A stretch of 62,691 nt of DNA, counting the filler. It is 4 parts of 4 records of this genome, joined end to end, with 100 filler letters (N's around TTAATTAATTAA, not from the genome) between each part and the next. Parts side by side here need not be neighbours in the genome. Positions count along the whole stretch, not along the records: positions 25,461 to 37,173 come from SRR20825010_3792; 3 more parts are not named here. One strand, written 5' to 3'. A program made the translations under genes and the position numbers. The notes below the pieces were generated by a model. That model was not told the origin of the DNA, searched no databases, and saw only the letters and a program-made list of their open reading frames with translations. Positions 25,361 through 62,691 of the stretch are shown in pieces (the first letter of the stretch is position 1; every line of letters starts with the position of its first letter).

Positions 25361-25460
25361 NNNNNNNNNNNNNNNNNNNNNNNNNNNNNNNNNNNNNNNN
25401 NNNNTTAATTAATTAANNNNNNNNNNNNNNNNNNNNNNNNNNNNNNNNNNNNNNNNNNNN
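25361..25460. other. Artificial contig spacer
   Basis: N44-TTAATTAATTAA-N44; genes truncated on both sides; abrupt GC change. Confidence 0.99.
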
Positions 25461-26201
25461 GTCGATGAAGATCACGCCCGGCTCGGCATAGGCATAGGTC
25501 GCGGCCATGATCTTGTCCCAGAGATCGCGCGCCTGCACGGTCTTGTAGACGGTGCCGTCGAAGACAAGGTCCCACGACTCGTCCTGCTTCACCGCTTCCA
25601 TGAACGGATCGGTGGCCAAGACGGAGAGATTGAACATGCGCAGCCGGGCCGGATCCTGCTTCGCCTCGATGAAGGCTTCCACGTCCGGATGGTCGCAGCG
25701 CAGCGTCGCCATCATGGCGCCGCGGCGGGAGCCCGCGCTCATGATGGTGCGGCACATGGCGTCCCAGACATCCATGAAGGAAAGCGGGCCGGACGCATCC
25801 GCCGCCACGCCGTGCACCCGGGCGCCGCGCGGCCGGATGGTGGAGAAATCGTAACCGATGCCGCCACCCTGTTGCATGGTCAGGGCCGCTTCCTTCAGAC
25901 CCTCGAAGATCCCGGCCATATTGTCCGGAACCGTGCCCATGACGAAACAGTTGAACAGTGTGACTTGCCGTCCGGTGCCGGCACCGGCGAAGATCCGGCC
26001 GGCGGGCAGATAACGGAAATCGGCGAGCGCGGTATAGAACTTCTCCGCCCAGGCTTCCTGGTCGGTCTCGACCTCGGCGAGGGCGCGTGCGACGCGCTGC
26101 CAGCTCTCCTCGATCGTGCGATCGATCGGCTCGCCATCTGCGGTCTTCAGGCGGTACTTCATGTCCCAAATCTGCTGGGAAACCGGGGCGATTGAAGTCA
26201 T
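25461..26201 (-). CDS. nrdJ: Adenosylcobalamin-dependent (class II) ribonucleotide reductase, 5' part
   Basis: PAGRIFAGAG, TLFNCFV, GGGIGYDFS, RRGAMMA and EPGVIFID. Confidence 0.93.
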
Positions 26202-26229
26202 TCCGGGCTCGTCCGTTCTGTCTCGTCAA

Positions 26230-26276
26230 ACACTATATATAGCTGCGCGCTATCGGGAGAACGCTATATATATACA
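26230..26276. promoter_or_regulatory. Tandem NrdR boxes
   Basis: ACACTATATATAGCTG (26230-26245) and ACGCTATATATATACA (26261-26276), 31 bp apart, directly upstream of nrdJ. Confidence 0.8.
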
Positions 26277-26331
26277 TCGATGGCACATGTCCATTGCTGC
26301 GCGCCGAAACATCAGCATAACACGATAAGCC

Positions 26332-27027
26332 TCAACCCGACATCACCGAAGCCGCCGTCACGCGCAGCCAAGCAGCCTGATACTTGACGTATTCCGAGAC
26401 CATCAGGAAGCGCGAGTGTGGCGATTTCCACCATTCGGCAAGGCCGGGATAGGCCGGGCGCACCGGGTATTCGGTGATCTCGATATCCGGCATGGCGGCA
26501 TGGAATTCGATTCGCGAGCGGGCCATGTGATAGTTCGAGGTGACCAGGATCATGGAGCGGTAGCCACCCGCCCGCATCCAGCCGGCCGCCTCTTCCGCAT
26601 TGCCGATCGTGTCATGGGCGCCATAGCCGAGCGCGACGCAGCAGGCCATTTTGGCGGCATCGATGGACACGCCGCTTTCCGCCACGGCGGAACGGAATTC
26701 GGGCGGGCTGACGATATCGTTGACCCCGGTCACCAGCAGGGCTTTCGCATGCCCCTCGAGCAACAGGGAGACCGCGACGGGCACCCGGCGGCTGCCGCCG
26801 GTCAGCACCACGATGGCATCGGCCTGCGGAGCAGCACCCGGCGCATCGGACGGCATGACAGCGAGGAACCAGAAAAACCCGCCGATCCATAAACCGGCCG
26901 CAACGACGGCGACACTCAGCATTCCGACGAGCCACCCCCTGAGCGGTCCGGCCTTCCAGTTCCGGCCTTTCTCCCCACTGCCCTGCTGGCTTTCCTGCCG
27001 GTTTCCCTGATGATCTTCCGCGCTCAC
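26332..27027 (-). CDS. YdcF/ElyC (DUF218) family protein
   Basis: DAIVVLTGG..R, DTIGNA and LVTSNYHMARS..EY.K; GTG start overlapping the ftsX stop (start uncertain). Confidence 0.88.
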   Translation of the reverse strand: MSAEDHQGNRQESQQGSGEKGRNWKAGPLRGWLVGMLSVAVVAAGLWIGGFFWFLAVMPSDAPGAAPQADAIVVLTGGSRRVPVAVSLLLEGHAKALLVTGVNDIVSPPEFRSAVAESGVSIDAAKMACCVALGYGAHDTIGNAEEAAGWMRAGGYRSMILVTSNYHMARSRIEFHAAMPDIEITEYPVRPAYPGLAEWWKSPHSRFLMVSEYVKYQAAWLRVTAASVMSG

Positions 27028-27929
27028 GGGTTCATCCTTCGAAGCGCACCAAGCACGGAGAAGCGCGCGGCAATCCAGGCAACAAAGGCAACCAGCACCG
27101 GGGCCGACGCGATCAGCAGCCATTCGATAATTCCGGCGGGCAGTCCGCCGAGCAGGGTCGGGATCAGATTGGCGCTGTCCACCGTTTCCGGCTCCAGCGC
27201 GGCCGCGCCACCGGCCAGCGTCGCAATCGCAAGAAACCCGCCGACCAGACCGCCGCGCAATGCCATTTTCAGGACATGGGCCTGGAATTCGGACGCGATA
27301 TAGCCGTCGCGCGCGCCGATCAGATGCAGGATGGCAATCACCTCGCGGTGGATCGAGACCGAGGTGCGGACGGCGAAGATCACGGCGACGACGGAAGCGC
27401 CCATGACCAGTGCCAGTACCGTCAATCCAAGCGCCTCGACAGCCCGGGTCAGTTTCGCCACATGGCCCATCCACTGGGTATGGGCTTCGACCATGGCGCC
27501 GGGGAAAAGCTCACCCAGACGGGATTCGAACTGCTTCAGGTCGATCTCCGGCGGCGCGGCGAAATGCAGGTCGAACAGGCGTGGCAACGGCAGCTCCGCC
27601 GCCAGATCGGCCCCGAGCCAGGGCGCCAGCAACTCGGCGCTGCTGGAGGTGTCGACCCGGACCATCCGGATAACCCCCGGCAATTGCCGCATCATCCGTT
27701 CCGCCTGGCTCAGGCGCGGGGCGTCGCTGCCCTCCGATACCGCCGACGGAATCTGCACCGTGACCACGCTGCCAAGGGCAAAATCCCAGCGCGCGGCAAG
27801 CTGGTGCGAGGTCACCGCGCCGACCGAGGCGAGCACAGCGAAATAACACATGATGCCAAGCAGCCAGGGCAGGTAGCGGGCGGATGGATCGTGCGACAAT
27901 GGAATGTCGCCGCGGGTCATCAGGGCCAT
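27024..27929 (-). CDS. ftsX: Cell division permease FtsX
   Basis: 4-TM layout; LLAPWLG..LPLPRL; I.ILHLIGARDGYIA.EF; follows ftsE. Confidence 0.88.
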   Translation of the reverse strand: MALMTRGDIPLSHDPSARYLPWLLGIMCYFAVLASVGAVTSHQLAARWDFALGSVVTVQIPSAVSEGSDAPRLSQAERMMRQLPGVIRMVRVDTSSSAELLAPWLGADLAAELPLPRLFDLHFAAPPEIDLKQFESRLGELFPGAMVEAHTQWMGHVAKLTRAVEALGLTVLALVMGASVVAVIFAVRTSVSIHREVIAILHLIGARDGYIASEFQAHVLKMALRGGLVGGFLAIATLAGGAAALEPETVDSANLIPTLLGGLPAGIIEWLLIASAPVLVAFVAWIAARFSVLGALRRMNP

Positions 27930-27933
27930 GGAA

Positions 27934-28677
27934 TCAGCCCCCGTGGCGATGCTGGCTGGAGCCCGTGCCGGCAGTGGCGGCGCCGACCGGGCGCGGTGCG
28001 CTGCGCCGGCTACCCGCCCCCCGGACACGGGTCACCCGCCCGCCATCGACATTGAGGCAGGGATGGGTGAAACGCTCCACCAGCGCCCGATTATGGGTCG
28101 CGATCAGCACCGTCGTGCCCATCTTGTGCAGTTCCTCGAAGAGATAGAGCAGCCGGACGGCCACGCCGTCATCGACATTGCCCGTCGGCTCGTCTGCGAG
28201 CAAGAGCTGCGGCCGGCCGATCACCGCACGGGCAATGGCCACGCGCTGCTGCTGTCCGCCGGACAGGGTATGCGGCAGGGCATCGAAATGACCGGACAGG
28301 CCGACCCATTCGAGCAGTTCCGGCACATATTCGCGGATCGCCGATTCGCGAGCCCCCGCGATGCGCAGCGGCAGCGCGACATTATCCAGCGCGCTCAGAT
28401 GCTGGATCAGCCGGAAATCCTGAAACACGATACCGATACGCCGGCGCAGCGCCGGGATACCGTCCCGGCCGATGCTGGCCGCATTCTGGCCGAACAGGGA
28501 CAACCGGCCGCGCGACGGCTTGAGGCCGAGATACATCAGCTTCAGCAGGCTCGATTTTCCGGCTCCACTGGCCCCGGTGATAAACTGGAACGAGCGCTCC
28601 TCGATCGCGAAACTGACATCGCTGAGGATCGCCGGGCTCCCGGGATAGCGGAGCTCCACCTTGTCAAACTGGATCAC
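27934..28677 (-). CDS. ftsE: Cell division ATP-binding protein FtsE
   Basis: [32 protein letters not shown] and IATH. Confidence 0.93.
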
Positions 28678-28777
28678 GGCGCGGCGCGCCTCCCTCTCCC
28701 AACACCGGTCCGGCCAGCGAATATGGTCTCGCGGGATTTTCCGGTTGCTCAAGTCCCCATGATTTCAGATCGTCAGC

Positions 28778-28831
28778 GCCATTGAAAGCCCGGCCATTGA
28801 AAGTGCCGGTATTAAAGCACGGGCATTGAAG
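28778..28831. repeat. Four imperfect direct repeats (period 14-15 nt) in the ftsE/zitP divergent intergenic region
   Basis: GCCATTGAAAGCCCG / GCCATTGAAAGTGCC / GGTATTAAAGCACG / GGCATTGAAG. Confidence 0.7.
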
Positions 28832-28902
28832 CGTGGTGGACAGTAGGCGCAGACGCCAGCTTTGCCTATAGTGGCCAGACCGTTAGTGGACAACAGGACC
28901 CC

Positions 28903-29739
28903 ATGAAACTCACCTGTCCCGAATGTACCCAGTCCTTCAGCGTACCGGACAACGCCATCGGCCCCAAGGGCCGCAAGCTCCGGTGCAGCAAGTGCAGCCA
29001 CGAATGGCATCAGACGCTGGAAATGCTGGAGGAAAAGAAGGCACCGAAGCCCGCCGCAAAACCGCGCGCCGCCTTGCCTCCTGCTGTCGAATCGGACGCC
29101 CCCGAACCCTCTGACGGCGAGGAAGAGGAGGTCGTCCCCTTCGGACGATTTGGCAGCGGTGAGGCAGATCCAGAGGCGGAACCCGCCTTCGAAAATGACG
29201 GGCAGGAAGAAGATCAGGAAGGCGTGTTCGGTGCGCCGCCGATCCCGCGCGGCCGCATGCCTCTCTCCCGGCCGCCAAAACGCCGGCGCAAGGGGCTGGT
29301 TGCCGCTGTCGCGGGCGTTGGCGTGCTGATCATACTCGCCATTCTGTTCGGTGCGCGAGGCTCTCTCGTCGCCGCCTGGCCGCCGATCGACCGGCTCTAC
29401 GCCTCGATCGGGCTCGGTGTTCCGGTGATCGGCGAAGATCTGGTGATCCAGAATGTCGCCGCCTGGCGCAAGGCGGACGGCTCTATCGAGCTGCTGGTCA
29501 TCAAGGGAGAGATCCGTAACCCGACGGAACAGATGCAAACCGTTCCGACACTGGCCGGCAAGCTCATGGGCACGCATGGCGACGTCATGCAGGAATGGCT
29601 GTTCCGGGCGGAAAATCAGGTCATGCTGCCGGGCGAGAAGACCAGCTTCGAGTATGAGCTGCCGCAACCCGGCGCCGATGCGGCGGAAGTCACCGTTACC
29701 TTTTCGGAAAAGACCCTCGGCGGCGGCCTCGGATATTAA
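28903..29739 (+). CDS. MJ0042-type zinc-finger, TM and DUF3426 protein (ZitP-like)
   Basis: CPEC...GRKLRCSKCSHEW; acidic/Pro-rich linker; single TM; WP..RLY..IGL; divergent from ftsE. Confidence 0.85.
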   Translation: MKLTCPECTQSFSVPDNAIGPKGRKLRCSKCSHEWHQTLEMLEEKKAPKPAAKPRAALPPAVESDAPEPSDGEEEEVVPFGRFGSGEADPEAEPAFENDGQEEDQEGVFGAPPIPRGRMPLSRPPKRRRKGLVAAVAGVGVLIILAILFGARGSLVAAWPPIDRLYASIGLGVPVIGEDLVIQNVAAWRKADGSIELLVIKGEIRNPTEQMQTVPTLAGKLMGTHGDVMQEWLFRAENQVMLPGEKTSFEYELPQPGADAAEVTVTFSEKTLGGGLGY

Positions 29740-29885
29740 CTTCATTAACCGGGGGTGTACCATTCCCGGCCCGCAGCCAGTGGCCCGGCATAACCGTGTT
29801 CCATTTGCCGTAACGGTTATTAAGCCCTAAAAACATTCTGCCCTGACTATCAGCAAAACTCTCATTTTATCAGGAAATTCCTACT

Positions 29886-30773
29886 ATGGATGCCAATAAA
29901 GCCAGTTCGACAGCCTATACGGTCATGCAGGGGCTTTTATGGGCATCGAACCACCCGCATTATGCACCGCTGGTTGACGCCGATATCAGGCAATCAATAC
30001 GGACGTTTCTATCGGCATCCCCCGAGGGACAGCGCCGCATTCAACAGGTGGAAGGCGTGATCTCGACACGCATGCTGCGCCTCTTTGAGAAGCTTCTGGC
30101 GCCCGGCATCAGCGTTCATTACGCGCTGCGGAAAAAGTTCTTCCTGAGCAACGTCGAAAAGCTGATTGCATCAGGCGCCCGGCAGGTCGTGAATATTGGT
30201 GCCGGCTTTGATCTGCTTGCCTGGAATCTCCACAAAAAATACCCCGACGTGAAGTTTGTCGAGATTGATCACCCGTCAACCAGCCAGGAAAAAGTCGCGA
30301 TCATCAATACGGTCTCTACACCGGGGGCGAACCTGTCTTTTCTGGCGTTCGACCTGTCAGAGGAAGGCCTGTACGCCGCACTGTCCTCTCAAAACATCAT
30401 CGAGCCGAACATCTCCACGGTCTTCATTTGTGAAGGCGTGTTCATGTATCTGGATGAAGGGTCCGTCATAAATACATTCAAGGACATTCAGAAATTCGAC
30501 CCCAAAGCGGCTTTCCTTTTCACCGCACTGGCGCCGTTTGAATCATCCGAAAACAACTCCACCTGGCTGCTGCGCACCTATCTTCATCTGAAAAAAGAAC
30601 CCATCGACTGGTGTATCGAGCCCAGCGCGATTGAAGCATTTCTGAAAGGCGTCTCTTTCAAGTGCGACGCCATTCTGGATGATGAAAAAGCATATCTGGA
30701 ATACTTGTCAAAACCACCGGAAACCGCTCTCCACAAGGGCGAATTCATGGTTGCCGCGACGTCAAACATCTGA
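29886..30773 (+). CDS. SAM-dependent methyltransferase, leucine carboxyl methyltransferase (LCM/TIGR00027)-like
   Basis: LRKKFF, QVVNIGAGFD, FVEIDHP and FICEGVFMYL. Confidence 0.85.
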   Translation: MDANKASSTAYTVMQGLLWASNHPHYAPLVDADIRQSIRTFLSASPEGQRRIQQVEGVISTRMLRLFEKLLAPGISVHYALRKKFFLSNVEKLIASGARQVVNIGAGFDLLAWNLHKKYPDVKFVEIDHPSTSQEKVAIINTVSTPGANLSFLAFDLSEEGLYAALSSQNIIEPNISTVFICEGVFMYLDEGSVINTFKDIQKFDPKAAFLFTALAPFESSENNSTWLLRTYLHLKKEPIDWCIEPSAIEAFLKGVSFKCDAILDDEKAYLEYLSKPPETALHKGEFMVAATSNI

Positions 30774-30797
30774 TCACTCTTCCGAAAAAGTGCCTCA

Positions 30798-31772
30798 ATG
30801 CCAATTCAGATAAAAATTGCCGACACTCCGGCTCTGCTGGACGAGCTTTATAAAGTCCGGCACGAGGTTTTCTGCACCGAGGAAGGCTTGTTTCCAGCAA
30901 GACCCGACGGCCGGGTTTTTGACCGGTTTGATGCCTATCCCACATCCACGAATCTCGTCGCGGTCATCGATGACGTGGTGATCGGCGGAATGCGTATCAT
31001 CCTTGATTCGGACGTCGGCTTGCACGCGGATGATTACTACGATTACGGACCGTTGATTCCCGCAGACGCCGTCCGGGCGAGCTCGGGGCATTTCTGCATA
31101 CTCAAACAATACAGATCGTCACAGGTCGCAAACGCGCTGATTTTGATGGCTTGCTATTATGGGTGCTCACAAAATACGGACTGGGTTTTGGCACCGGTTA
31201 ATCCATTGATCGGGCGGATGCTGGGACGGATCGGCTTCAAGAAGGTCGGCGACAGTTTCGAGGTGCCTGGAATCACGGTCAAAGTGCTGCCCATGCTTCT
31301 GGATGTGCGTGACCTGCAGGACATCTTTATTGATTTCCTGCACCAGAATAATCTCTACAACTTCCTTCAATCCTACGAATGTCACATCTTCAGTCCTGAC
31401 GAGACGATCATCCGTGCAGGCGATGTGGGTGATATGGCCTACATCATTCTCGAGGGTGAAGTGAAAGTATTACACCCTGTCGATAACAGTGTTCTCGCTG
31501 TCCTGGGCCAGGGCGATATTGTCGGTGAACTCGCAATCTTCATGGATGATGTGCGGACCGCAAATGTGGTTGCCACCTCCCCCGTGAGAGCGATGACACT
31601 GCATAAGGACACCTTCCTGGAATTCCTGCGCACCAACCCGGATGAAGCCCTCAATCAATTGAAGCTGCTGGGCCGGCGCATGAAGGCAATGGTCGCGAGT
31701 TACGGCTGCCCTCAGTCCGACGCCCAAACAATGCTGCCCGATCAGAACCGCTTCAGCAGCCGCTCGATATAA
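30798..31772 (+). CDS. N-acyl amino acid synthase-like (FeeM/LuxI-like GNAT fold) fused to a cyclic-nucleotide-binding domain
   Basis: N-terminal YKVRHEVF..E, DRFD, IGGMR, VNP..RIGF; C-terminal IIRAGDVGDMAYIILEGEV and GELAIF...RTANVVA. Confidence 0.8.
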   Translation: MPIQIKIADTPALLDELYKVRHEVFCTEEGLFPARPDGRVFDRFDAYPTSTNLVAVIDDVVIGGMRIILDSDVGLHADDYYDYGPLIPADAVRASSGHFCILKQYRSSQVANALILMACYYGCSQNTDWVLAPVNPLIGRMLGRIGFKKVGDSFEVPGITVKVLPMLLDVRDLQDIFIDFLHQNNLYNFLQSYECHIFSPDETIIRAGDVGDMAYIILEGEVKVLHPVDNSVLAVLGQGDIVGELAIFMDDVRTANVVATSPVRAMTLHKDTFLEFLRTNPDEALNQLKLLGRRMKAMVASYGCPQSDAQTMLPDQNRFSSRSI

Positions 31773-34402
31773 TCCAGCTCAAGGCTCGGCCGTGACCGGT
31801 CCCCCGAGCGTTCCCGCAGCTCGTCGAAGATCCGCCGGGCACGCTGGATGTCGGTTTCCGACGGGATTTCGACATCATTGTTGTCGTTGAAGCCATAGCC
31901 GGTGCGCCGCCGGTTCAGCGGATCGCCGTCCTCGCTTTCGAAATCGTCCTCTTCGGCGCTCTGTCCATTCGGGTTTTCCTGCCCCTGACCGTTCGCCATC
32001 TCACGCAGGGCCTCGTTCAGGGACTCCGCGCCCTGCTGCATCTGGCTCAGGGCATCGCCCTGCGGCCCGACGGCCTGTCCGGGTGCGTTCTCCCCGAGGG
32101 CTTCCGTCGCATCGCGCATGGATTGCTCGGCGCCGCCGAAGCCCTCCGGGATCTGCCCGAGGCCTTCACCAACCTTGCGCATGAACTCGCCAAGCTGCTT
32201 GCGCAGCCGTTCCTGCATGTCCGCCAGCTCCGCTGCCAGTTGCTCGGCCGTCATCTGGCCTTCGCCCTGACCGGGTGACTGGCCCTGCTGACCGTTCTGA
32301 CCCTGTTGCTGGCCGGGCTGTTGGCCGCGCTGCCCCTGTTGCTGACCCTGCTGCCCCTGTTGGCCCGGCTGCTGGCCGCGCTGGCGCTGGTGTTGCTGGA
32401 AGGTCCGGTCCATCAGGTCGCGCTGCTGCTGCGACAGGTCTTTCAGCTGGCGCATCATTTCCTGCAGTGCCTGCTGTTGCGGCGACATCTGCTGCTGCTG
32501 CATGCCCATCCGCAGGTTTTCCATCATCTGCTGCAGCTGCGAGAGCATCTGCCGGGCCGCGTCGCGGGCACCGGTCTTTGCCATGTCCCGCATCTGGTCC
32601 AGCATCTTCATCAGATCCTCGCGGCGGACCATCTGGTTCGGATCGATCTGCTGGCGCTGCATCTGCTCGCCACGCTGGGCCTGCTTCATCATCTGCTCGG
32701 CCATGGCCTGGAGATATTCGTCGATCGCTTTCTGCATTTCCTGCATCAGGCGTTCGATCTCCTCGTCACTGGCATCACCGGCCAGCGCCTCCTGCAACCT
32801 GCGCTCGATGTCCCGCAGCTTGCGCATCGCGGTCGACACCTCGCCATCCTCGATCCTGAGGGCGACATCCCAGAGCAGACTTTGCAGCGCCGCGATGCCT
32901 TCCGTGTCCGGCGCTGTGAAATAGAGCCTGTTCGCCGCCGTTTTCAGACCGAGGAAAACAACAATGTCATGGAAATAGCGGTTTGGCCGGGCGGCAAGGG
33001 TCAGCAGGATTTCCGCGATATCGATGCGCTCTTCCGGCTCACTCACCAGACGCTTGCGCTGCTGGATCACGGCGACTGCCACCGGATGATTGAAGACCCG
33101 CTCCGGCAGCACCATCTCGACCGGCGCGCTTGTCCCGGTCTGATCGAGGTCATCCGCCGCCTCAAGCGTGATGCTCACCTTGTGTCCGGCCCAGGGATGC
33201 GGGGTCAGGTCGTTGAAGCTGCGGCCGGTGATTTCCTTCCGCTCACCGGCAACCGCCGGCATGGTGATCTCGATCGGCGCCTCATCGGTGATGCCGTCAT
33301 CCCCGACGCGATGGATCAGCGCCCGGACCCGAGCCACGCCATAATTGTCCTCCGCCTCGTAGCGCAGGATCAGGGCCTGCCGTTCAGAGGCCGCAGGCGG
33401 CTCCATGAAATCGACGGACGGTACCAGATCCGGCAGCACATTGATGCGCCATTGGGCGAGAGCCTCGTCATCCTGCATCACGGCAAGCCGCGTACCGCGG
33501 GAAATCGGTGTCTGTATCTGATGGCTTTCGGGCGCGATGGTCTCGAAGCTCACCCGCTCCGAGGTGCCTTGCGACGTGCCTTCCGCCGTCTTGTCGGCCG
33601 TGCCCGCAAGAGCGCCGTCCTCAATGACCAGCTCCGGTGTCTCCTCGCCGCCATTGACCGTCGCCAGAAAACGGCTGCCAATCGGGATCGCAACGGTTTC
33701 CGGTTCCTTATCTTCCGCTGGTGCGGCTTCCTGCCGGAGCGCCGGCGGGCGGGAGAGCAGGATCGGCGCCATCCCGGTATAATCCGGCGGGCTGACCCAG
33801 ACATCCGCGAGAGAAGACGGTGCCGCCCCCGCGCCGCGCAGCTCGGGCGTCACCGCGGCCCGCAGCCGTTCACCCGGATTCTGCCAGCCCGCAACGATCC
33901 CCATGAAAAGAATGAGCCCGACGAGGGAGCGCAGGCCGAACGGATCCAGCCGCGCCGCGACCGGCTCCGGACTGCCGACATGGACCTGGCGGCGCACATC
34001 GCCGAGCCGCTTCAGATGCGCCTGCCAGAGGGCCGCTTCCGTCCTGCCGCCACCCGCGACCGCATCGCTCAGGGCAGAGAGCGGCCGGTGCCGCAAACCC
34101 GACCAGCTTTCCAGCCGGCGCAGGATCTGGCTTTCGCCCGGCCAGGAGAAGGCGATGATCGCGCGCCGGAGAGTCCAGAGGAAAAGCCCGAGCACGATGA
34201 CAAGAAAGGCCGCCTGCAGCCAGCCACCGCTGATCTGCCCCAGCGCCTGGGGCAGTTCGATCAGAGATAATCCAAGGAATAGTCCGAGCAGGGCGAGCGG
34301 CCAGCGGAAGGCCGGGAAAAACCGTTCCCACGCCAGCACAAGGCCGGTCGTCCATACCTTCAGCCGGTAGGAGAAGGAAGCCGTCTGGGCATCGTCACGC
34401 AT
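31742..34402 (-). CDS. TIGR02302 / DUF4175 family membrane protein
   Basis: LAWER, ALWQAH, DPFGLR, W..PPDYTG, DNYGV, PHPWAG; Q/G-rich region; ELDYIERLL. Confidence 0.9.
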   Translation of the reverse strand: MRDDAQTASFSYRLKVWTTGLVLAWERFFPAFRWPLALLGLFLGLSLIELPQALGQISGGWLQAAFLVIVLGLFLWTLRRAIIAFSWPGESQILRRLESWSGLRHRPLSALSDAVAGGGRTEAALWQAHLKRLGDVRRQVHVGSPEPVAARLDPFGLRSLVGLILFMGIVAGWQNPGERLRAAVTPELRGAGAAPSSLADVWVSPPDYTGMAPILLSRPPALRQEAAPAEDKEPETVAIPIGSRFLATVNGGEETPELVIEDGALAGTADKTAEGTSQGTSERVSFETIAPESHQIQTPISRGTRLAVMQDDEALAQWRINVLPDLVPSVDFMEPPAASERQALILRYEAEDNYGVARVRALIHRVGDDGITDEAPIEITMPAVAGERKEITGRSFNDLTPHPWAGHKVSITLEAADDLDQTGTSAPVEMVLPERVFNHPVAVAVIQQRKRLVSEPEERIDIAEILLTLAARPNRYFHDIVVFLGLKTAANRLYFTAPDTEGIAALQSLLWDVALRIEDGEVSTAMRKLRDIERRLQEALAGDASDEEIERLMQEMQKAIDEYLQAMAEQMMKQAQRGEQMQRQQIDPNQMVRREDLMKMLDQMRDMAKTGARDAARQMLSQLQQMMENLRMGMQQQQMSPQQQALQEMMRQLKDLSQQQRDLMDRTFQQHQRQRGQQPGQQGQQGQQQGQRGQQPGQQQGQNGQQGQSPGQGEGQMTAEQLAAELADMQERLRKQLGEFMRKVGEGLGQIPEGFGGAEQSMRDATEALGENAPGQAVGPQGDALSQMQQGAESLNEALREMANGQGQENPNGQSAEEDDFESEDGDPLNRRRTGYGFNDNNDVEIPSETDIQRARRIFDELRERSGDRSRPSLELDYIERLLKRF

Positions 34403-34569
34403 GCAAAGACCCATCCCCGGCATAAAGCCGTGTCATCAGGGACGGATCCCGACCGCCTCCCCCGCTGGCTAAACCACCCGCGGCGGCACGGGAACCTGTC
34501 GTTAGCTCATACTCTCCCGGAGACGAACGCCCCGGTCAAGTCTGCGACAATTCAGCTAGCCCGGCCGGA

Positions 34570-35817
34570 CTATTCTTCAAGAGCCAGCATTTCATCAAGC
34601 GACTGGCGGCGGCGGACAATTTTGAAGCTGTCGCCATCCACCAGAACTTCCGGCACGAGCGGCCGGGAGTTGTAGTTCGAGCTCATGACGGCGCCGTAGG
34701 CACCCGCCGATTTCAACACGATAAGGTCGCCATCACTGACCGGTCCGAGGCGGCGGCCACGCGCCAGATAATCCCCGCTCTCGCAGATCGGACCGACGAT
34801 ATCGGCCAGACTGTCTTCCTGACTGGAAGCCGTTTCGGCGACGGTGACAATGTCGTGATGTGCCTCATAGAGGGTCGGGCGGATGAGATCGTTCATGGCG
34901 CCATCGACGATGACGAAGCGCCGGGCACCGCCCTGCTTCACGAACATCACCCGGGTCAGGAAATAGCCTTCGTTGCCGACCAGATAGCGGCCCGGCTCGA
35001 CGGAGAGCCGGCAATCGAGATCGCCGACCGTATCCTTCACGATCTCCGCATACTCGTCGAGATCCGGCGGCGTGGCTCCGTCATAGGAAATGCCGATACC
35101 GCCGCCGAGATCGAGATGGTCGACCTGATAGCCCTGCTGGCGAAGATTGAGCGTCATGCCCCGGAGCCGGTCATAGGCCGCGCGATATGGAGTGACATCC
35201 ATCAGCTGCGAGCCGATATGGACCGACATGCTCCTGAGGCTGACATTTTCCAGCTCGGCCGCCAGCGCGAACATGTCCGGCGCCCGGTCTATATCGATAC
35301 CGAACTTGTTCTCTTTCCGGCCGGTCGTGATCTTGGCGTGGGTCTTGGCATCGACATCCGGATTGACCCGGATCGCCGCCGGCGCGATCACACCCTTGGA
35401 GGCCGCAACCTGGTTCAGGAGCCGGAGCTCGCCTTCCGATTCCACGTTGAACTGGTGAATGCCCGCATCCAGAGCAGCCGCCATTTCGTCCGCCGTCTTG
35501 CCGACACCCGCGAAAACGATCTTGTCCGCCGCGACACCGGCCCGCAGGCTGCGCTGCATCTCACCGCCGGACACCACGTCCATGCCCGCACCCAGCTCAC
35601 CGAACAGCCGGACCACGGCAAGGTTCGAGTTGGCTTTCAGGGCGTAATAGATCGAGACCGGGAGACCCGAGAGCGCAGCCTCCAGCGCGCGATACCGCGC
35701 GGTCATTCCGGTCTTGGAATAAACGTAGACGGGGCTGCCCACTTCATCGGCGATACGGGCGAACGGAACCTGCTCAACAGTCAGGGCGCCATCCACGTAG
35801 GAGACTTGCTCACTCAT
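34570..35817 (-). CDS. lysA: Diaminopimelate decarboxylase
   Basis: YALKANSN, HIGSQ, DLGGG, EPGR, GPICESGD and YNSRP. Confidence 0.97.
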   Translation of the reverse strand: MSEQVSYVDGALTVEQVPFARIADEVGSPVYVYSKTGMTARYRALEAALSGLPVSIYYALKANSNLAVVRLFGELGAGMDVVSGGEMQRSLRAGVAADKIVFAGVGKTADEMAAALDAGIHQFNVESEGELRLLNQVAASKGVIAPAAIRVNPDVDAKTHAKITTGRKENKFGIDIDRAPDMFALAAELENVSLRSMSVHIGSQLMDVTPYRAAYDRLRGMTLNLRQQGYQVDHLDLGGGIGISYDGATPPDLDEYAEIVKDTVGDLDCRLSVEPGRYLVGNEGYFLTRVMFVKQGGARRFVIVDGAMNDLIRPTLYEAHHDIVTVAETASSQEDSLADIVGPICESGDYLARGRRLGPVSDGDLIVLKSAGAYGAVMSSNYNSRPLVPEVLVDGDSFKIVRRRQSLDEMLALEE

Positions 35818-35859
35818 TTCATCAAACTTTCGGTCGGGTAACGTCTTCTGGCTGACGCG

Positions 35860-36006
35860 TTATTGGGTCGGATAGCTGCGCGGGAAATCGGAAGATTGTC
35901 CGGAGGGCGGTTTGAGGTTGCCCTTCTTGCCGCACGCGGTCTGAGTGAAGGCCAAACCAGCGAACAGGACCGCAAGCAGTCCAAACCGGGTCATCCGTTT
36001 CAACAT
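35860..36006 (-). CDS. Small lipoprotein, LppL/LptM(YifL)-like, 48 aa (absent from ORF track)
   Basis: MLKRMTRFGLLAVLFAGLAFTQTA-CGKKGNLKPP...YPTQ*; GAGG RBS upstream; sits between argH and lysA. Confidence 0.85.
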   Translation of the reverse strand: MLKRMTRFGLLAVLFAGLAFTQTACGKKGNLKPPSGQSSDFPRSYPTQ

Positions 36007-36029
36007 CGCACCTCTCCCCTGTCCGTGCG

Positions 36030-37173
36030 TCAGCCGAGGAACCGGTCGCGGGCACGGGCGACCTGTTCACGCACATTATCCGGCGCGGTTCCGCCGTAGC
36101 TGGTCCGGCTCGACACCGAGGCATCGACCGTCAGCACATCGAACACACCGTCCGTGATATCCGGCTCAACCGCCTGCATCTCCGCAAGGCTGAGATCTTC
36201 TATACCGCAGCCCTTGTCCTCGGCCAGCTTCACGATTGTGCCAGTGACATGGTGCGCCCGGCGGAACGGCATGCCGGCAGCCCGGACCAGCCAGTCGGCC
36301 AGATCGGTGGCGGTCGGGAACCCGGCCTTCAGCGAGGCCCGCATCGGGCCCTCGTTAGCCTTCATGTCGCTGATCATACCCGTGGTCGCAGCAATGCAGA
36401 GACCGAGAGAGTCGACCGCATCGAACACCGGCTCCTTGTCTTCCTGCATGTCCTTGCCATAGGCCAGCGGCAGGCCCTTCATGACGATCAGTAGCGCATT
36501 CAGATCGCCGATGATCCGGCCTGATTTCGCCCGCACCAGTTCGGCCGCGTCCGGATTGCGCTTCTGCGGCATGATCGAGCTGCCGGTGGTGAAGGCATCG
36601 GACAGCGTGATGTAATTGAACTGCGCACTGGTCCAGATCACGATCTCTTCGGCCAGACGCGAGAAATGCGTGGCGCAGATCGACATGGCGGACAGGAATT
36701 CGAGCGCGAAATCCCGGTCGGACACGGCGTCGAGCGAGTTCGCCGCAGGGCGGGCGAAGCCCAGCGCTTCCGCCGTCTTGTGCCGGTCGATCGGAAAGGA
36801 CGTGCCGGCCAAAGCCGCGGCGCCGAGCGGACATTCGTTCATCCGCTCCCGGCAATCCCGGAACCGGCCAAGATCCCGGCCGAACATCTCGACATAGGCC
36901 AGCAGGTGGTGCCCGAAGGTGACCGGCTGCGCCGTCTGCAAGTGGGTGAAGCCCGGCATCACCACATCGGCATTACGCTCGGCCTGATCGACCAGCGCTT
37001 CGATCAGCCCGGTCAGGCTCGCATCGACGGAGTCGAGCGCGCCACGCACCCAGAGCTTGAAATCGGTCGCCACCTGATCGTTACGGGAGCGTGCCGTATG
37101 CAGCCGCCCCGCCGCGTCACCGATCAGCTCGGCCAGCCGGTTTTCCACATTCATGTGGATATCTTCCAGCGCG
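36030..37173 (-). CDS. argH: Argininosuccinate lyase (5'-truncated at contig end)
   Basis: [17 protein letters not shown] and [12 protein letters not shown]. Confidence 0.97.
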
Positions 37174-37273
37174 NNNNNNNNNNNNNNNNNNNNNNNNNNN
37201 NNNNNNNNNNNNNNNNNTTAATTAATTAANNNNNNNNNNNNNNNNNNNNNNNNNNNNNNNNNNNNNNNNNNNN
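37174..37273. other. Artificial contig spacer
   Basis: N44-TTAATTAATTAA-N44. Confidence 0.99.
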
Positions 37274-58342: not shown

Positions 58343-58442
58343 NNNNNNNNNNNNNNNNNNNNNNNNNNNNNNNNNNNNNNNNNNNNTTAATTAATTAANN
58401 NNNNNNNNNNNNNNNNNNNNNNNNNNNNNNNNNNNNNNNNNN
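58343..58442. other. Artificial contig spacer
   Basis: N44-TTAATTAATTAA-N44. Confidence 0.99.
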
Positions 58443-58443
58443 G

Positions 58444-59649
58444 GGGGCGGGGGCGCAGGGCAAGGGCTTTGCTCCGCAGCGGTTTACCACCTCGCATGAG
58501 GGCAGTGTGGCGCGCGGTGCGCCGATGATCGAGGCGGGGCTGTGGTATCGGCCCTCGTATTTTCCCAAACCGGGCGAAACCACATGGCGCGAAAGCTGTG
58601 ACCGTGAGGTCCGGATGGTGCGCGAAGCGGTCGGCATCTGCGATGTGTCGACCCTTGGCAAGATCGATTTGCAGGGCCGCGATGTGGGCGCGTTCCTTGA
58701 TTTTGTCTACTCCAACACCTTTTCGACGTTGAAGCCGGGGCGGGTGCGCTATGGGCTGATGCTGCGTGAGGACGGGCATGTCATGGATGACGGCACCACG
58801 GCGCGGCTGTCTGACACGCAATGGGTCATGACCACCACCACCGCTGCGGCGGGGCCGGTGATGAAGCACCTCGACTGGGTGCGGCAGGCCTATTGCAGCC
58901 ATATGGACGTGCGGTTCGTATCCGTCACCGAACAATGGGCGCAGTTTGCGGTTGCCGGACCCAAATCGCGTGAGTTGTTGAACGCGCTGCTGGATGAACC
59001 CATCGATGATGGCAGCTTTCCGTTTATGCAAAACGGGCCGGTCAGCATTGGCGGGGTCGCGGCGCGGTTGTTCCGCATCTCGTTCTCGGGCGAGCACGCC
59101 TATGAGATCGCGGTGCCTGCGCGCTATGGCGCCAGTCTCTTCGAGGTGCTGCTAGGGCGGGCAGAGGCACTGGGCGGCGGTCCCTACGGGATGGAGGCGC
59201 TGAACGTTATGCGGATCGAGAAAGGACATATCACCCATGCCGAGATTCACGGCCGCACAACCGCCTTTGACATCGGTTTTGCGCGGATGGTGTCGGCCAA
59301 GAAGGACTGTATCGGTAAGGCGCTGGCGGCCCGTCCCGGCATGGTGGCCGAGGATCGAGAGCAATTGGTTGGCTTGCGGCCCGTGACCGTGGGCAACACC
59401 CTGACCGCAGGGGCGCATCTGTTCGACGAGGGGGCCGAGGCGGTGCGGGTCAACGATCAGGGCTATATCACCTCGGTCGGTTTTTCGCCGACGCTGGGCA
59501 CCTTTCTGGGTCTGGGCTTTCTGCGCAATGGGCGCGCGCGCCATGGCGAAAAGGTGCGGATGGTCGATCACCTGCGCGGGGTCGAAGAGGTCTGTGTTGT
59601 GACCGACCCGGTGGCGTTTGATGCGGATGGAGGACGGTTGCGTGGTTGA
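58444..59649 (+). CDS. soxA: Sarcosine oxidase alpha-subunit family, C-terminal GcvT-like part (5'-truncated)
   Basis: DVSTLGKI, RYGLMLREDG..DDG, RISFSGE.AYE and RIEKGH. Confidence 0.92.
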   Translation, partial: GAGAQGKGFAPQRFTTSHEGSVARGAPMIEAGLWYRPSYFPKPGETTWRESCDREVRMVREAVGICDVSTLGKIDLQGRDVGAFLDFVYSNTFSTLKPGRVRYGLMLREDGHVMDDGTTARLSDTQWVMTTTTAAAGPVMKHLDWVRQAYCSHMDVRFVSVTEQWAQFAVAGPKSRELLNALLDEPIDDGSFPFMQNGPVSIGGVAARLFRISFSGEHAYEIAVPARYGASLFEVLLGRAEALGGGPYGMEALNVMRIEKGHITHAEIHGRTTAFDIGFARMVSAKKDCIGKALAARPGMVAEDREQLVGLRPVTVGNTLTAGAHLFDEGAEAVRVNDQGYITSVGFSPTLGTFLGLGFLRNGRARHGEKVRMVDHLRGVEEVCVVTDPVAFDADGGRLRG

Positions 59650-60193
59650 ATTAACAGCTTTGACACCCTGCAACGGGATTTTGCCGATACAAACGGGTGA
59701 GACAACCCTGAGTGAGGTCGATCCGGGCCGGATCACCGCATTGATGCCATTCAAGGGGCAGTCCGCGGATCTGAAGACCGCGTTGCAGGCGGCGCATGGC
59801 CTGCGCTTTCCAGAACCGGGGCAAGCCACCGTGGCAGAGGGCGCATCCTGCGTCTGGACGGCGCGGGGACAGGCCTTTTTGATGGGTCCGGCGCCGGATG
59901 ACAGCCTAGCGCGCTTTGCCTCTGTGACAGATCAGTCGGACGCCTGGACGGTCGTCTTGTTGGCGGGTCTGGATGCCGAGGACGTGCTGGCGCGGCTTGT
60001 CCCGATTGATCTGCGCCTGTCAGTCTTCCCCGAAGGGACGGCGGCGCGGACGTTGTGCCAGCATATGACGGTTCACATCAGTCGGCGGGCGGAGGGGCTG
60101 CAACTGATGGCGTTCCGGTCGATGGCGCGGACTCTTGCCCATGACATCGGTGAGGCCATGGCCTCGGTTGCGGGGAGGCGTGCGGCGGGCTAA
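59642..60193 (+). CDS. soxG: Sarcosine oxidase gamma subunit
   Basis: TDQSDAW, VLARLVPIDL and FRSMA; overlaps the soxA stop. Confidence 0.88.
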   Translation: MVELTALTPCNGILPIQTGETTLSEVDPGRITALMPFKGQSADLKTALQAAHGLRFPEPGQATVAEGASCVWTARGQAFLMGPAPDDSLARFASVTDQSDAWTVVLLAGLDAEDVLARLVPIDLRLSVFPEGTAARTLCQHMTVHISRRAEGLQLMAFRSMARTLAHDIGEAMASVAGRRAAG

Positions 60194-60235
60194 ATGGCCC
60201 TCTTGCCGCAGGTGAGCCAAAGGAGAGTGAGTGTC

Positions 60236-60511
60236 ATGCGTGTGTTGGCAATGATCGCTGTGATCGGAATGACGGCATCCGGCGCTGTGGCGCAGGATGT
60301 CGATAAATGTGCCTTGACGGAAACATGGTTCAACGCCGCCGTGCAGGCGCGGCTGGACGGTGACACCATCGGCACGGTGCGCCGCGCGTTGCGCAAGGAT
60401 ATGGACCGGACGGCCGCCGAACAATTGGCCGAGTTCGTCTTTGCCCTACCCGAAGAGGCGCTGACGCCCGAGGTGGCCAAGGCCGCCCGCACCCAGTGTG
60501 AGGCGCTCTGA
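60236..60511 (+). CDS. Small secreted hypothetical protein with two cysteines
   Basis: AGGAG RBS; signal peptide ending AVA-Q; DKC...TQC. Confidence 0.7.
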   Translation: MRVLAMIAVIGMTASGAVAQDVDKCALTETWFNAAVQARLDGDTIGTVRRALRKDMDRTAAEQLAEFVFALPEEALTPEVAKAARTQCEAL

Positions 60512-60593
60512 TTCACAGCAGGACGGGACTGTTCGTCTGTCACGCGGTTGACGGCCTCTTGGCATTGGCGCCGCAAAGCCCGATATTGGCTGC

Positions 60594-62558
60594 ATGAGTC
60601 TCCCCCCCGGTTTTCTGGATGAACTGCGCAATCGCTCCAGCCTCGCACAGGTGGTGGGGCGCAAAGTGCTGTGGGACAACCGGAAATCCAATCAGGGCAA
60701 GGGCGACCTGTGGGCGCCGTGCCCGTTTCACCATGAAAAGACAGCGTCCTTTCACGTCGATGACCGCAAGGGCTACTATTATTGCTTTGGCTGCCACGCC
60801 AAAGGCGATGCGATTTCCTTCGTGCGCGAGACGGAAAACGTGAGCTTCATGGAAGCGATCGAGATTCTGGCGCAAGAGGCGGGCATGGAAGTGCCCAAGG
60901 AAGATCCCCGCGCGCAGCAAAAGGCGGACCGCCGGACGCAGCTGGTCGAAGTCATGGAACAGGCTGTCGGGTTCTTTCGCCTGCAACTGAAGACCGGGGC
61001 AGGGGCCGAGGCGCGTGCCTATCTGGCGCGGCGCGGTCTGGATGAGGCGGCGCTGGAACGCTGGGAGATCGGTTTTGCCCCGCCGGGTTGGGAAAACCTG
61101 CGAGAGGCCTTGGCGGGGCGGGGCGTGTCGCCCGACTTGATGCTGGCCGCCGGACTGGTCAAAGCGTCGGACAAGGGGCGCGCGCCCTATGATGTGTTCC
61201 GCAACCGAATCATGTTTCCGATCCGTGATGCGCGCGGCCGGGCGATTGCCTTTGGCGGGCGGGCGATGGACCCGAATGACAACGCCAAATACCTGAATTC
61301 TCCGGAAACCGAACTGTTCGACAAGTCGCGCAACCTGTTCAATTTCAAGCCCGCGCGCGAGGCATCGGGACGGGGGCAAACCCTGATCGTCGGTGAGGGC
61401 TACATGGACGTGATCGCGCTGTCCGAAGCCGGGTTCACGGCCTCTGTCGCGCCGCTGGGCACTGCGGTGACTGAACCGCAGTTGCAATTGATGTGGCGCG
61501 TTTCGGATGAACCGGTGATTGCGCTGGACGGGGACAAGGCCGGGTTGAAGGCTGCCTACCGGGTGATCGACGTCGCCCTGCCGCTGTTGGAGGCGGGCAA
61601 AGGCCTGCGCTTTGCCATCATGCCAGAGGGCAAAGACCCGGACGATCTGTTGCGGGCCGAGGGGCCGGAGGCCGTCAAGACGGTGTTGGATGCGGCGATG
61701 CCCATGGTGCAACTGCTGTGGCGGCAAGAGACCGAGGGTCTGGTGCTGGACAGCCCGGAACGCAAGGCGGCGCTGGACAAGGCCCTGCGGGCGCGGATCG
61801 GCAAGATCCAAGACCCCAGCCTGCGCCATCACTATGGCGAGGCGATCAAGGAACTGCGGTTTCAAGCCTTTCGCGCGCAACGCCCGCAGCAGGCCCCACG
61901 CCAACAGCAGGCCTATCGCGGCAAGGGGTTCAAACCTTTTCAGCCTCCAGCAGTGCCAACGGCTGGGGCAAAGGCGTCATTCCTCGCCTCGTCCGGCGAA
62001 GACGGGGAGCGCCGCTTGCGGTTGGAGGTGATCCTGGCCGCCGTTCTGTCCGCGCCGGGCATCGCTGAGGGGTTCGAGACGCAGTTAGAGGACATGCCCT
62101 GCGCCGACGGGACGCTGGCGGCCTTGCGGGACGCGATTCTCGACAGTATCGCCGAACCAGAGACGATGACCCGGCGTGCAGAGGCGGTGATCGGGGCGGA
62201 AGCCCTTGAAAATCTTTTGATGGGACGCCATGTGGCGGTGGTGCCCTGTATTCGCACGCCCGGAAATGCCGACCAAGCGCGGCTGACCGTGGCAGAGGAA
62301 CTGGCGAAGCTCGCCGCCGCCGACGGGTGGCAAGTAGAACTGAACGAAGCCGTGGAGGACCTGGCTGACCATGCTGATGAGGCGCTGACATGGCGTCTTG
62401 CAGAGGCCGCAAGGGTTCGCGCGCAGGCGGGTCGCCGCCGGGATGAAGATGATGCCGAATATGACGTGGGGCCAAACGGGGCCCCGATTGACCGTGAGGA
62501 ACGCAGCGCGTTCGATTCGCTCCTGTCGCAGATTCGATTCGACAAGGGCCGAAAATGA
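60594..62558 (+). CDS. dnaG: DNA primase
   Basis: CPFHHEKTASF..CFGC zinc finger; FGGR, KYLNSPET, EGYMDV, DGD.AG and KDPDD. Confidence 0.98.
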   Translation: MSLPPGFLDELRNRSSLAQVVGRKVLWDNRKSNQGKGDLWAPCPFHHEKTASFHVDDRKGYYYCFGCHAKGDAISFVRETENVSFMEAIEILAQEAGMEVPKEDPRAQQKADRRTQLVEVMEQAVGFFRLQLKTGAGAEARAYLARRGLDEAALERWEIGFAPPGWENLREALAGRGVSPDLMLAAGLVKASDKGRAPYDVFRNRIMFPIRDARGRAIAFGGRAMDPNDNAKYLNSPETELFDKSRNLFNFKPAREASGRGQTLIVGEGYMDVIALSEAGFTASVAPLGTAVTEPQLQLMWRVSDEPVIALDGDKAGLKAAYRVIDVALPLLEAGKGLRFAIMPEGKDPDDLLRAEGPEAVKTVLDAAMPMVQLLWRQETEGLVLDSPERKAALDKALRARIGKIQDPSLRHHYGEAIKELRFQAFRAQRPQQAPRQQQAYRGKGFKPFQPPAVPTAGAKASFLASSGEDGERRLRLEVILAAVLSAPGIAEGFETQLEDMPCADGTLAALRDAILDSIAEPETMTRRAEAVIGAEALENLLMGRHVAVVPCIRTPGNADQARLTVAEELAKLAAADGWQVELNEAVEDLADHADEALTWRLAEAARVRAQAGRRRDEDDAEYDVGPNGAPIDREERSAFDSLLSQIRFDKGRK

Positions 62559-62681
62559 GCGTCGTATTGGTGACGAACTGGTAAACAAATAAGGTTAAAC
62601 GGGTGTGCGAATCACTTTATCGCGTTATTGAGTCGTTTTAACGAATCGCCCCGTTCCCGAGCCCCCCATCAGGAGAGCCGC

Positions 62682-62691
62682 ATGGCAGCCA
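62682..62691 (+). CDS. Probable start of RNA polymerase sigma-70 (rpoD)
   Basis: AGGAG RBS then ATG GCA GCC A after dnaG; only 10 nt visible, so identity is inferred from gene order. Confidence 0.5.

Follow-up and report, generated by a model that had tools for sequence, protein, structure and literature searches.

A conserved two-gene cassette joins a FeeM-type synthase carrying a cyclic-nucleotide-binding domain to an LCM-family methyltransferase: a candidate route to methyl esters of N-acyl amino acids

What is made by two small genes that stand side by side, on the same strand, between two conserved host genes of a Nisaea-like bacterium? The window analysed here is a stretch of DNA of 62,691 nt in which four contig stretches are joined by filler (at 25361-25460, 37174-37273 and 58343-58442, each a pair of 44-N runs), and the two genes lie in one of them, the contig SRR20825010_3792. 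[quoted passage not shown] A sequence-only reading had described them as co-oriented genes 24 nt apart, wedged between a zitP-like and a TIGR02302 gene, with LCM-type carboxyl-methyltransferase motifs in gene 1 and with FeeM/LuxI-like motifs and an intact cNMP domain in gene 2. This description holds throughout. Both open reading frames (ORFs) lie on the plus strand with the spacer between them, every motif named is present in both proteins and agrees with the Pfam matches and, for gene 1, with an LCM fold (the carboxyl chemistry itself being carried over from relatives), and the wedge is literal, as homology to cassette-free relatives breaks off around the pair. The features of the pair are:

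29886..30773, plus strand: gene 1, LCM-family class I S-adenosylmethionine (SAM)-dependent methyltransferase of 295 aa, predicted to be a carboxyl O-methyltransferase (PF04072, AlphaFold2 (AF2) model, motifs)
30774-30797, plus strand: intergenic spacer of 24 nt (ORF coordinates)
30798..31772, plus strand: gene 2, fusion of FeeM and cNMP_binding domains, 324 aa (Pfam, AF2 model)
30798..31337, plus strand: N-terminal FeeM-type N-acyl amino acid synthase domain of gene 2, residues 1-180 (PF21926, 2G0B fold)
31389..31637, plus strand: cyclic-nucleotide-binding domain of gene 2, residues 198-280 (PF00027, G243-E244...R253-T-A cassette)
31707..31772, plus strand: stop-loss tail of gene 2, residues 304-324 and the new stop (TGA in relatives, TGC here)

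The identity of gene 2 was examined by profile and by structure, comparing FeeM with the LuxI, OlsB and Pat alternatives that the earlier reading had named, and FeeM came out strongest by both. The match to FeeM (PF21926) scores 77.5 bits against a cut-off of 27 over residues 18-169, and that to cNMP_binding (PF00027) scores 72.1 bits against 27.5 over residues 198-280. Acetyltransf_5 (PF13444), the profile of OlsB-like lipid N-acyltransferases, is passed weakly (27.7 vs 22.4), far below FeeM. A LuxI-type N-acyl homoserine lactone (AHL) synthase is a weaker assignment, given the failure of Autoind_synth (PF00765; 21.4 vs 24) and a weaker fold match, and so is a Pat-type cAMP-regulated lysine acetyltransferase, because the NCBIfam model ActPatMycb56 (NF058543) gives 38 bits against a cut-off of 460, with a match confined to residues 183-305, that is, to the cNMP part. 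The AF2 model of gene 2 has a predicted local distance difference test score (pLDDT) of 83 and a predicted template modelling (TM) score of 0.77. Its top structural matches are the FeeM chains of 2G0B (E 5e-11, TM 0.77-0.80, target-normalised), ahead of the AHL synthase BjaI (TM 0.60 with the same normalisation, against 0.79 for FeeM), and its C-terminal half matches the cAMP- or cGMP-bound domains of SthK, CRP, GlxR, PKA-R and HCN channels. FeeM is therefore the best family and fold match of residues 1-180, although identity to 2G0B is 17-19% and the chains of that structure, of 170-189 residues, correspond to the N-terminal half only and are devoid of a cNMP domain.

The motifs of the FeeM part (R21-x2-V24-F25-x2-E28, D42-R-F-D45 and G63-G-M-R66) fall on invariant or near-invariant columns. 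The phosphate-binding cassette G243-E244...R253-T-A is intact, with G243 and E244 invariant and R253 nearly so among 18 sequences; since relatives have R-S-A and other variants in place of R-T-A, a preference for cAMP or cGMP is not readable from it. The protein is 21 residues longer than its closest relatives (303 aa) because a stop codon was lost, the relatives having GGC TGA where the window has GGC TGC. This tail is modelled as disordered (pLDDT <50 for residues 304-324), and it shares 31 nt with the 3' end of the convergent TIGR02302 gene. Since the cluster P0001 (98% identical, 20 member sequences) has the tail too, the extension is an allele rather than a sequencing error.

Gene 1 matches LCM (PF04072) at 86.5 bits against the Pfam cut-off of 22.3. 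In the family alignment its motifs Q100..G105-A-G-F-D109, E126-I-D-H-P130 and E183-G-V..Y188-L189 are invariant or nearly so, motif I (GAGFD) being invariant. The AF2 model (pLDDT 91.3) shows an LCM-type fold including the helical N-terminal lid, and its best fold matches are Rv0731c, PPM1 (TM 0.72-0.73 for PPM1, query-normalised), TYW4, ML2640c and LCMT-1. Below this group rank small-molecule methyltransferases of the O-, N- and C- types (PhzM, MfnG and DnrK, for instance), with TM 0.41-0.48. PPM1/LCMT-1 and TYW4, which share family and fold with gene 1, methylate the alpha-carboxyl group of amino-acid moieties that are N-substituted, and this is the chemistry that we propose for gene 1 as well. 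Sequence identity to them is 11-17%, and they act on a protein C-terminus and on a tRNA base, whereas a lipid would be the substrate of gene 1. For the bacterial relatives Rv0731c and ML2640c we know of no established substrate.

Do the two proteins work together? We think that they are very probably coupled functionally, and the evidence is their linkage across genomes. Metagenome contigs were scanned with an alignment of MT relatives and the best 80 loci were kept; their six-frame ORFs were searched with profiles that we built for the MT and for the FeeM and cNMP domains, doubtful cases being checked by Pfam. The MT subfamily was delimited by MT similarity alone, with 20 loci at hidden Markov model E<=6e-98 and the other 60 at E>=2e-78. 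An adjacent gene with both FeeM and cNMP domains is present in 12 of the 20 close loci (L037, L041-L045, L050, L052-L055 and L062, the FeeM domain of L044 being incomplete), and a standalone FeeM/Acetyltransf_5-like gene adjoins the MT in two others (L046, 193 aa; L047, 258 aa). In the 60 loci whose MTs are more distant, the same profile search found no FeeM gene. Three loci, L039, L040 and L048, end 186, 128 and 331 bp past the 3' end of the MT and are uninformative on that side.

Gene order within the 12 fused loci is MT followed by NAS in seven, as in the window, and NAS followed by MT in the five loci L041-L045. Since adjacency survives this rearrangement in proteins whose identity falls to 22-29% (NAS) and 35-45% (MT), it argues for a shared function. 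Both proteins also fall into three identical sequence groupings, with a Pearson r of 0.75 over 66 pairs that 0 of 5000 Mantel permutations reached. Seen from the synthase side, the evidence is thinner. Four close relatives of the synthase have a longest contig equal in length to that of MT relatives, which speaks indirectly for linkage. Three of 400 other Pseudomonadota genomes, evenly drawn, have a strong FeeM-domain match, and one of these (G146) carries MT followed by NAS. The linkage that had been put forward as a check of the sequence-only reading is thus present in distant genomes and in two gene orders. The locus L062, with MT followed by NAS on a contig of 738 kb, has a synthase 95% identical to a protein of Fontisubflavum oceani (Rhodobacterales) and, judging from its sequence, is the nearest bridge from the pair to the roseobacters. 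The synthases of the NAS-first loci, at about 400 aa, continue for some 90 residues past the cNMP domain with no Pfam match.

The surroundings of the pair indicate how it came to stand at this site. They comprise the following features:

25461..37173: host contig SRR20825010_3792, Nisaea-like, bounded by N runs, guanine plus cytosine (GC) content ~0.63 (N runs, GC profile, flank identity)
28903..29739, plus strand: upstream flank, ZitP-like gene with an MJ0042-type zinc ribbon (Zn_ribbon_4) and DUF3426, a host gene outside the cassette (Pfam, NCBIfam)
29740..31740, plus strand: inserted cassette of ~2.0 kb, low in GC and without mobility genes (homology break against empty-site genomes)
29740..29885, plus strand: insert leader of 146 nt upstream of gene 1, the presumed promoter region
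31742..34423, minus strand: downstream flank, TIGR02302/DUF4175 gene, a host gene outside the cassette (576.9 bits vs cut-off 394.3)

Homology of the window to empty sites stops at 29739 and restarts at 31737-31744, depending on the locus, which gives the insert its size of about 2.0 kb. The two cassette genes have a GC content of 0.519 and 0.532, whereas that of the flanking genes is 0.637 and 0.652. In a Nisaea genus set of 10 genomes around the Nisaea genome G063, all have the ZitP-like gene; it is followed by the MT and the synthase in three (G062, G063, G096), and in six the site is empty, with the ZitP-like and TIGR02302 genes convergent and almost abutting. The pair occupies the same site in the window and in the TARA contig L037. 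Within a family set of 63 genomes, three have a strong FeeM-domain match. A plasmid collection gave no match to either cassette protein. The pair moves as a unit; that it was acquired horizontally belongs to the full mechanism set out below, and we hold this as tentatively as that mechanism. At the same intergenic site the remaining genome of the genus set, G098, has other cargo, a gene for a 172-aa GNAT protein (Acetyltransf_3; L032:2366-2884); the site may be a recurrent landing place.

The host of the cassette is Nisaea-like (Rhodospirillales) and no roseobacter. The same four genes occur in the same order in two loci of Nisaea sp. metagenome-assembled genomes, with identities to the window of 86-99% for the flanks and 88-95% for the cassette proteins, and Nisaea is placed in the Rhodospirillales, Thalassobaculaceae (NCBI taxonomy). 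The GC content of the four stretches of the window is ~0.43 (1-25360), ~0.63 (25461-37173), ~0.43 (37274-58342) and ~0.62 (58443-62691), and two organisms or more seem to be combined in the assembly, the low-GC part being like the genome G001 and the cassette contig Nisaea-like. The low-GC part equals G001 at 100% identity over 3 kb. G001 does not have the flanks of the cassette locus, so the finding of FeeM-domain matches in none of the 37 genomes of the genus centred on it is no sign of strain specificity.

Sequences from RNA libraries are compatible with transcription of the cassette in the sea. At least half of the words sampled from the cassette were found in 13 DNA or unclassified runs, and small shares in 6 RNA runs. 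Four marine RNA runs from four studies, mapped to 29400-32200, gave 11 contig pieces of 151-285 nt; eight of them lie wholly within the two genes at 95-100% identity, one of which (30547-30831) crosses the gene junction. Of the remaining three, one (31682-31904) connects the end of gene 2 with the gene that flanks it, and two lie within that flank. Stretches of the mapped interval left uncovered in these runs are no evidence of silence.

Which product could such a pair make? In our opinion, the most likely reading is that cNMP gates the synthesis of an N-acyl amino acid, whose carboxylate the MT caps as a methyl ester, and we put it forward tentatively. The FeeM-type domain of gene 2, as in NasP, would move a long acyl chain, probably from acyl carrier protein, to the amino group of an amino acid, and the C-terminal cNMP domain would make this activity dependent on cAMP, cGMP being also possible. 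With SAM, gene 1 would methylate the alpha-carboxylate that is left free, either on the N-acyl amino acid or, before acylation, on the amino acid itself, giving a neutral N-acyl amino acid methyl ester (NAME), a small methylated lipoamino acid. From the pathway of the sequence-only reading, the domain assignments with their folds, the NasP-like architecture and the conserved linkage stand; the methyl-ester product, the activation by cNMP, the acyl donor and the amino acid are predictions, as are the methylation site and the order of the steps.

A wider proposal, to which we give less credence than to the pathway itself, concerns the role of the product and of the MT subfamily. A second messenger might here directly gate an enzyme making a neutral, diffusible, AHL-like lipid, and the subfamily might cap the carboxyl groups of lipoamino acids in general, having been recruited both by FeeM-type synthases, whether or not these carry a cNMP domain, and by single-module nonribosomal peptide synthetases (NRPSs).

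Several observations weigh against the methyl-ester pathway. Gene 1 stays under the cut-off of TIGR00027 in NCBIfam (78.3 vs 93.55), and carboxyl methylation by it is an extrapolation, because most bacterial LCM-family members have, to our knowledge, no known substrate. In their divergence, MT and NAS correlate weakly by rank (Spearman 0.19, p 0.13), since the synthases of the NAS-first group have diverged more than their MTs. On the synthase side, the genome G322 has a FeeM plus cNMP gene and no MT genome-wide at E<=1e-10, and in G177, which likewise has no MT, a FeeM-domain ORF lies on a contig of 2.2 kb; because of these two genomes, the MT looks like an optional tailoring partner. The annotated loci show no consistent association of the pair with an acyl carrier protein, an acyl-activating enzyme or an exporter. 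When named sequences were searched with the alignment of synthases, few further relatives with a name turned up, and no known NAME producer was among their sources. As regards expression, a sigma-70 consensus scan of 29600-31900 gave 0 sites, so that the cassette promoter is a presumption, and a terminator for the cassette was not found there, the sole terminator-like site being on the minus strand within the 5' end of gene 2, where we judge it meaningless. The RNA-library contigs, finally, are short and shallow and come from libraries that may contain DNA.

The alternative that survives best keeps the methylated N-acyl amino acid and places the methyl group elsewhere than on the carboxylate, that is, on the amide or amine nitrogen, on a side-chain hydroxyl or on the acyl chain. 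The linkage shows that the MT works with the synthase and is silent on the position methylated, and the shortfall of gene 1 at TIGR00027 also leaves room for such a product. There is moreover a precedent in the stieleriacine-type N-acyl tyrosines, whose ring O- or C-methyl groups are credited to methyltransferases near NAS genes (PMC12479983). However, the analysis that this paper presents groups those methyltransferases with SfmM2, UbiE and MfnG and not with LCM types, and the best folds of gene 1 are those of the LCM group, ahead of PhzM, MfnG and DnrK. We therefore regard methylation off the carboxylate as unlikely, though it is the rival to be taken most seriously.

Another acceptor for gene 2 is more improbable still. 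The enzyme would then acylate something other than a free proteinogenic amino acid, such as an OlsB-like precursor of ornithine or glycine lipids, a LuxI-like homoserine lactone or another amine, and the MT would modify the resulting lipid. Such a reading can point to the pass at PF13444 and the near miss at Autoind_synth, to the structural match with BjaI, and to relatives that some sources name 'N-acyl-L-homoserine lactone synthetase'. It has against it that FeeM is by far the strongest family and fold, and that neither an OlsA-like O-acyltransferase nor a LuxR gene adjoins the pairs in the annotated loci. That the two genes are neighbours with no common pathway, gene 2 being a protein acetyltransferase under cAMP control, like mycobacterial Pat, and gene 1 a methyltransferase unrelated to it, is very improbable: the fusion of GNAT and cNMP domains is indeed the architecture of Pat and the Pat model gives its weak match, but this match is limited to the cNMP part and is far under the cut-off, the cNMP domain follows FeeM in all 81 fused representatives whereas Pat has the reverse order, and adjacency in two gene orders at the low identities given above is beyond a chance neighbourhood.

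The methyl-ester pathway can also be set beside systems that are already described. NasP is said to contain its NAS and cNMP-binding domains in a single protein, as gene 2 does in one polypeptide; the likeness is one of architecture as described. We know of no methyltransferase partner of NasP. According to the reports on this enzyme, NasP acylates phenylalanine and is activated by cAMP (PMC4897644, PMC5643525), and the product reported is free N-acylphenylalanine and no ester, whereas an ester is predicted for the cassette. A second likeness is given by Nas343 and Nas354, described as NAS-PilZ fusions from a biofilm metagenome (PMC4897644), in which a FeeM-like NAS domain is likewise joined to a second-messenger receptor domain. 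Their receptor is PilZ, for cyclic di-GMP, and that of gene 2 is a cNMP domain; the passages of the paper dealing with Nas343 and Nas354 mention no MT partner. What is new in the present case is the pairing of a NasP-like enzyme with an LCM-type tailoring partner of its own in a mobile unit of 2 kb.

NAMEs, the compound class predicted for the cassette, have been obtained from marine alphaproteobacteria, whose producers belong to Roseovarius and Loktanella, in contrast with the Nisaea-like host from the Rhodospirillales considered here. The producer strains are Roseovarius tolerans EL-164, Roseovarius sp. D12_1.68 and Loktanella sp. F13, F14 and D3. The authors of a paper of 2018 stress that NAMEs are native (PMC6296433). 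The sequence-only reading knew of no described gene pair for these compounds, which fits with our literature searches and with a paper of 2024, whose Introduction states that the genomes of producers had yielded no candidates for a NAME synthase (PMC11580390). The supplements of the latter that list differentially expressed genes have no FeeM or cyclic-nucleotide-binding entry, and those lists do not extend to the strain's whole genome. Our searches, which left most subscription journals outside, found no paper on a pair of FeeM-cNMP synthase and LCM methyltransferase or on genes for NAMEs.

We think that the interest of the locus for this field is considerable. A compact, conserved and portable pair that predicts NAME chemistry reduces the NAME-synthase question to a two-gene expression experiment. 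If the pathway is true, cAMP or cGMP would control a secreted lipid directly at the enzyme, with no need of transcription. There is also a practical side, since an LCM-subfamily MT adjoining a FeeM-type gene can serve as a search rule for producer strains.

An exhaustive HMMER search with residues 1-180 of gene 2 gave 468 representative clusters at E<=1e-3, 213 of them also reaching E<=1e-10, and 81 of the best 150 FeeM-domain representatives carry a cNMP domain. The phyla richest in protein-atlas clusters with both Pfam families are Pseudomonadota, Cyanobacteriota, Myxococcota and Actinomycetota. One protein, P0147 (533 aa), joins FeeM, cNMP and histidine-kinase domains (PF00512, PF02518) in a single chain.

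The neighbourhoods of close MT homologs add further hints, above all on second messengers and on other sources of acylated amino acids. In L049:878-4324 the MT adjoins a Cache-HAMP-adenylate/guanylate cyclase of 777 aa, followed on the opposite strand by a cNMP-domain fragment at the contig edge, and this cluster could bring its own cyclase. A Crp regulator is encoded upstream in L062. Class III cyclase-domain matches number 8-9 in each of five Nisaea genomes, be the cassette present or absent. Genes for patatin/NTE-like lipases with a cNMP domain of their own lie near the MT or the pair in L045:778-2553, in L043:5159-6131 (as fragments) and in L038:1-1335; where an acyltransferase and a lipase, both under cNMP control, stand together, the lipase may add a second regulated step. 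The locus L051:2604-7499 has no FeeM gene, and beside its close MT homolog stands a convergent NRPS of 1288 aa with condensation, adenylation, thiolation and thioesterase (C-A-T-TE) domains. In L038:1357-6362 a close MT homolog is accompanied by a divergent cNMP/NTE-like gene and then by radical SAM and C-A genes. Such NRPSs are another possible route to N-acylated amino acids, and both loci hint that the MT subfamily serves several routes to them.

Two single loci deserve mention for their neighbours. In L046:362-3991 the MT, the standalone FeeM/LuxI-like gene of 193 aa and a TonB-dependent receptor (Plug domain) stand in a row. In L054:2915-3901, and in this case alone, the MT-NAS pair has a gene for alanine racemase immediately upstream and on its own strand, an observation of interest because alanine is the main amino acid of NAMEs.

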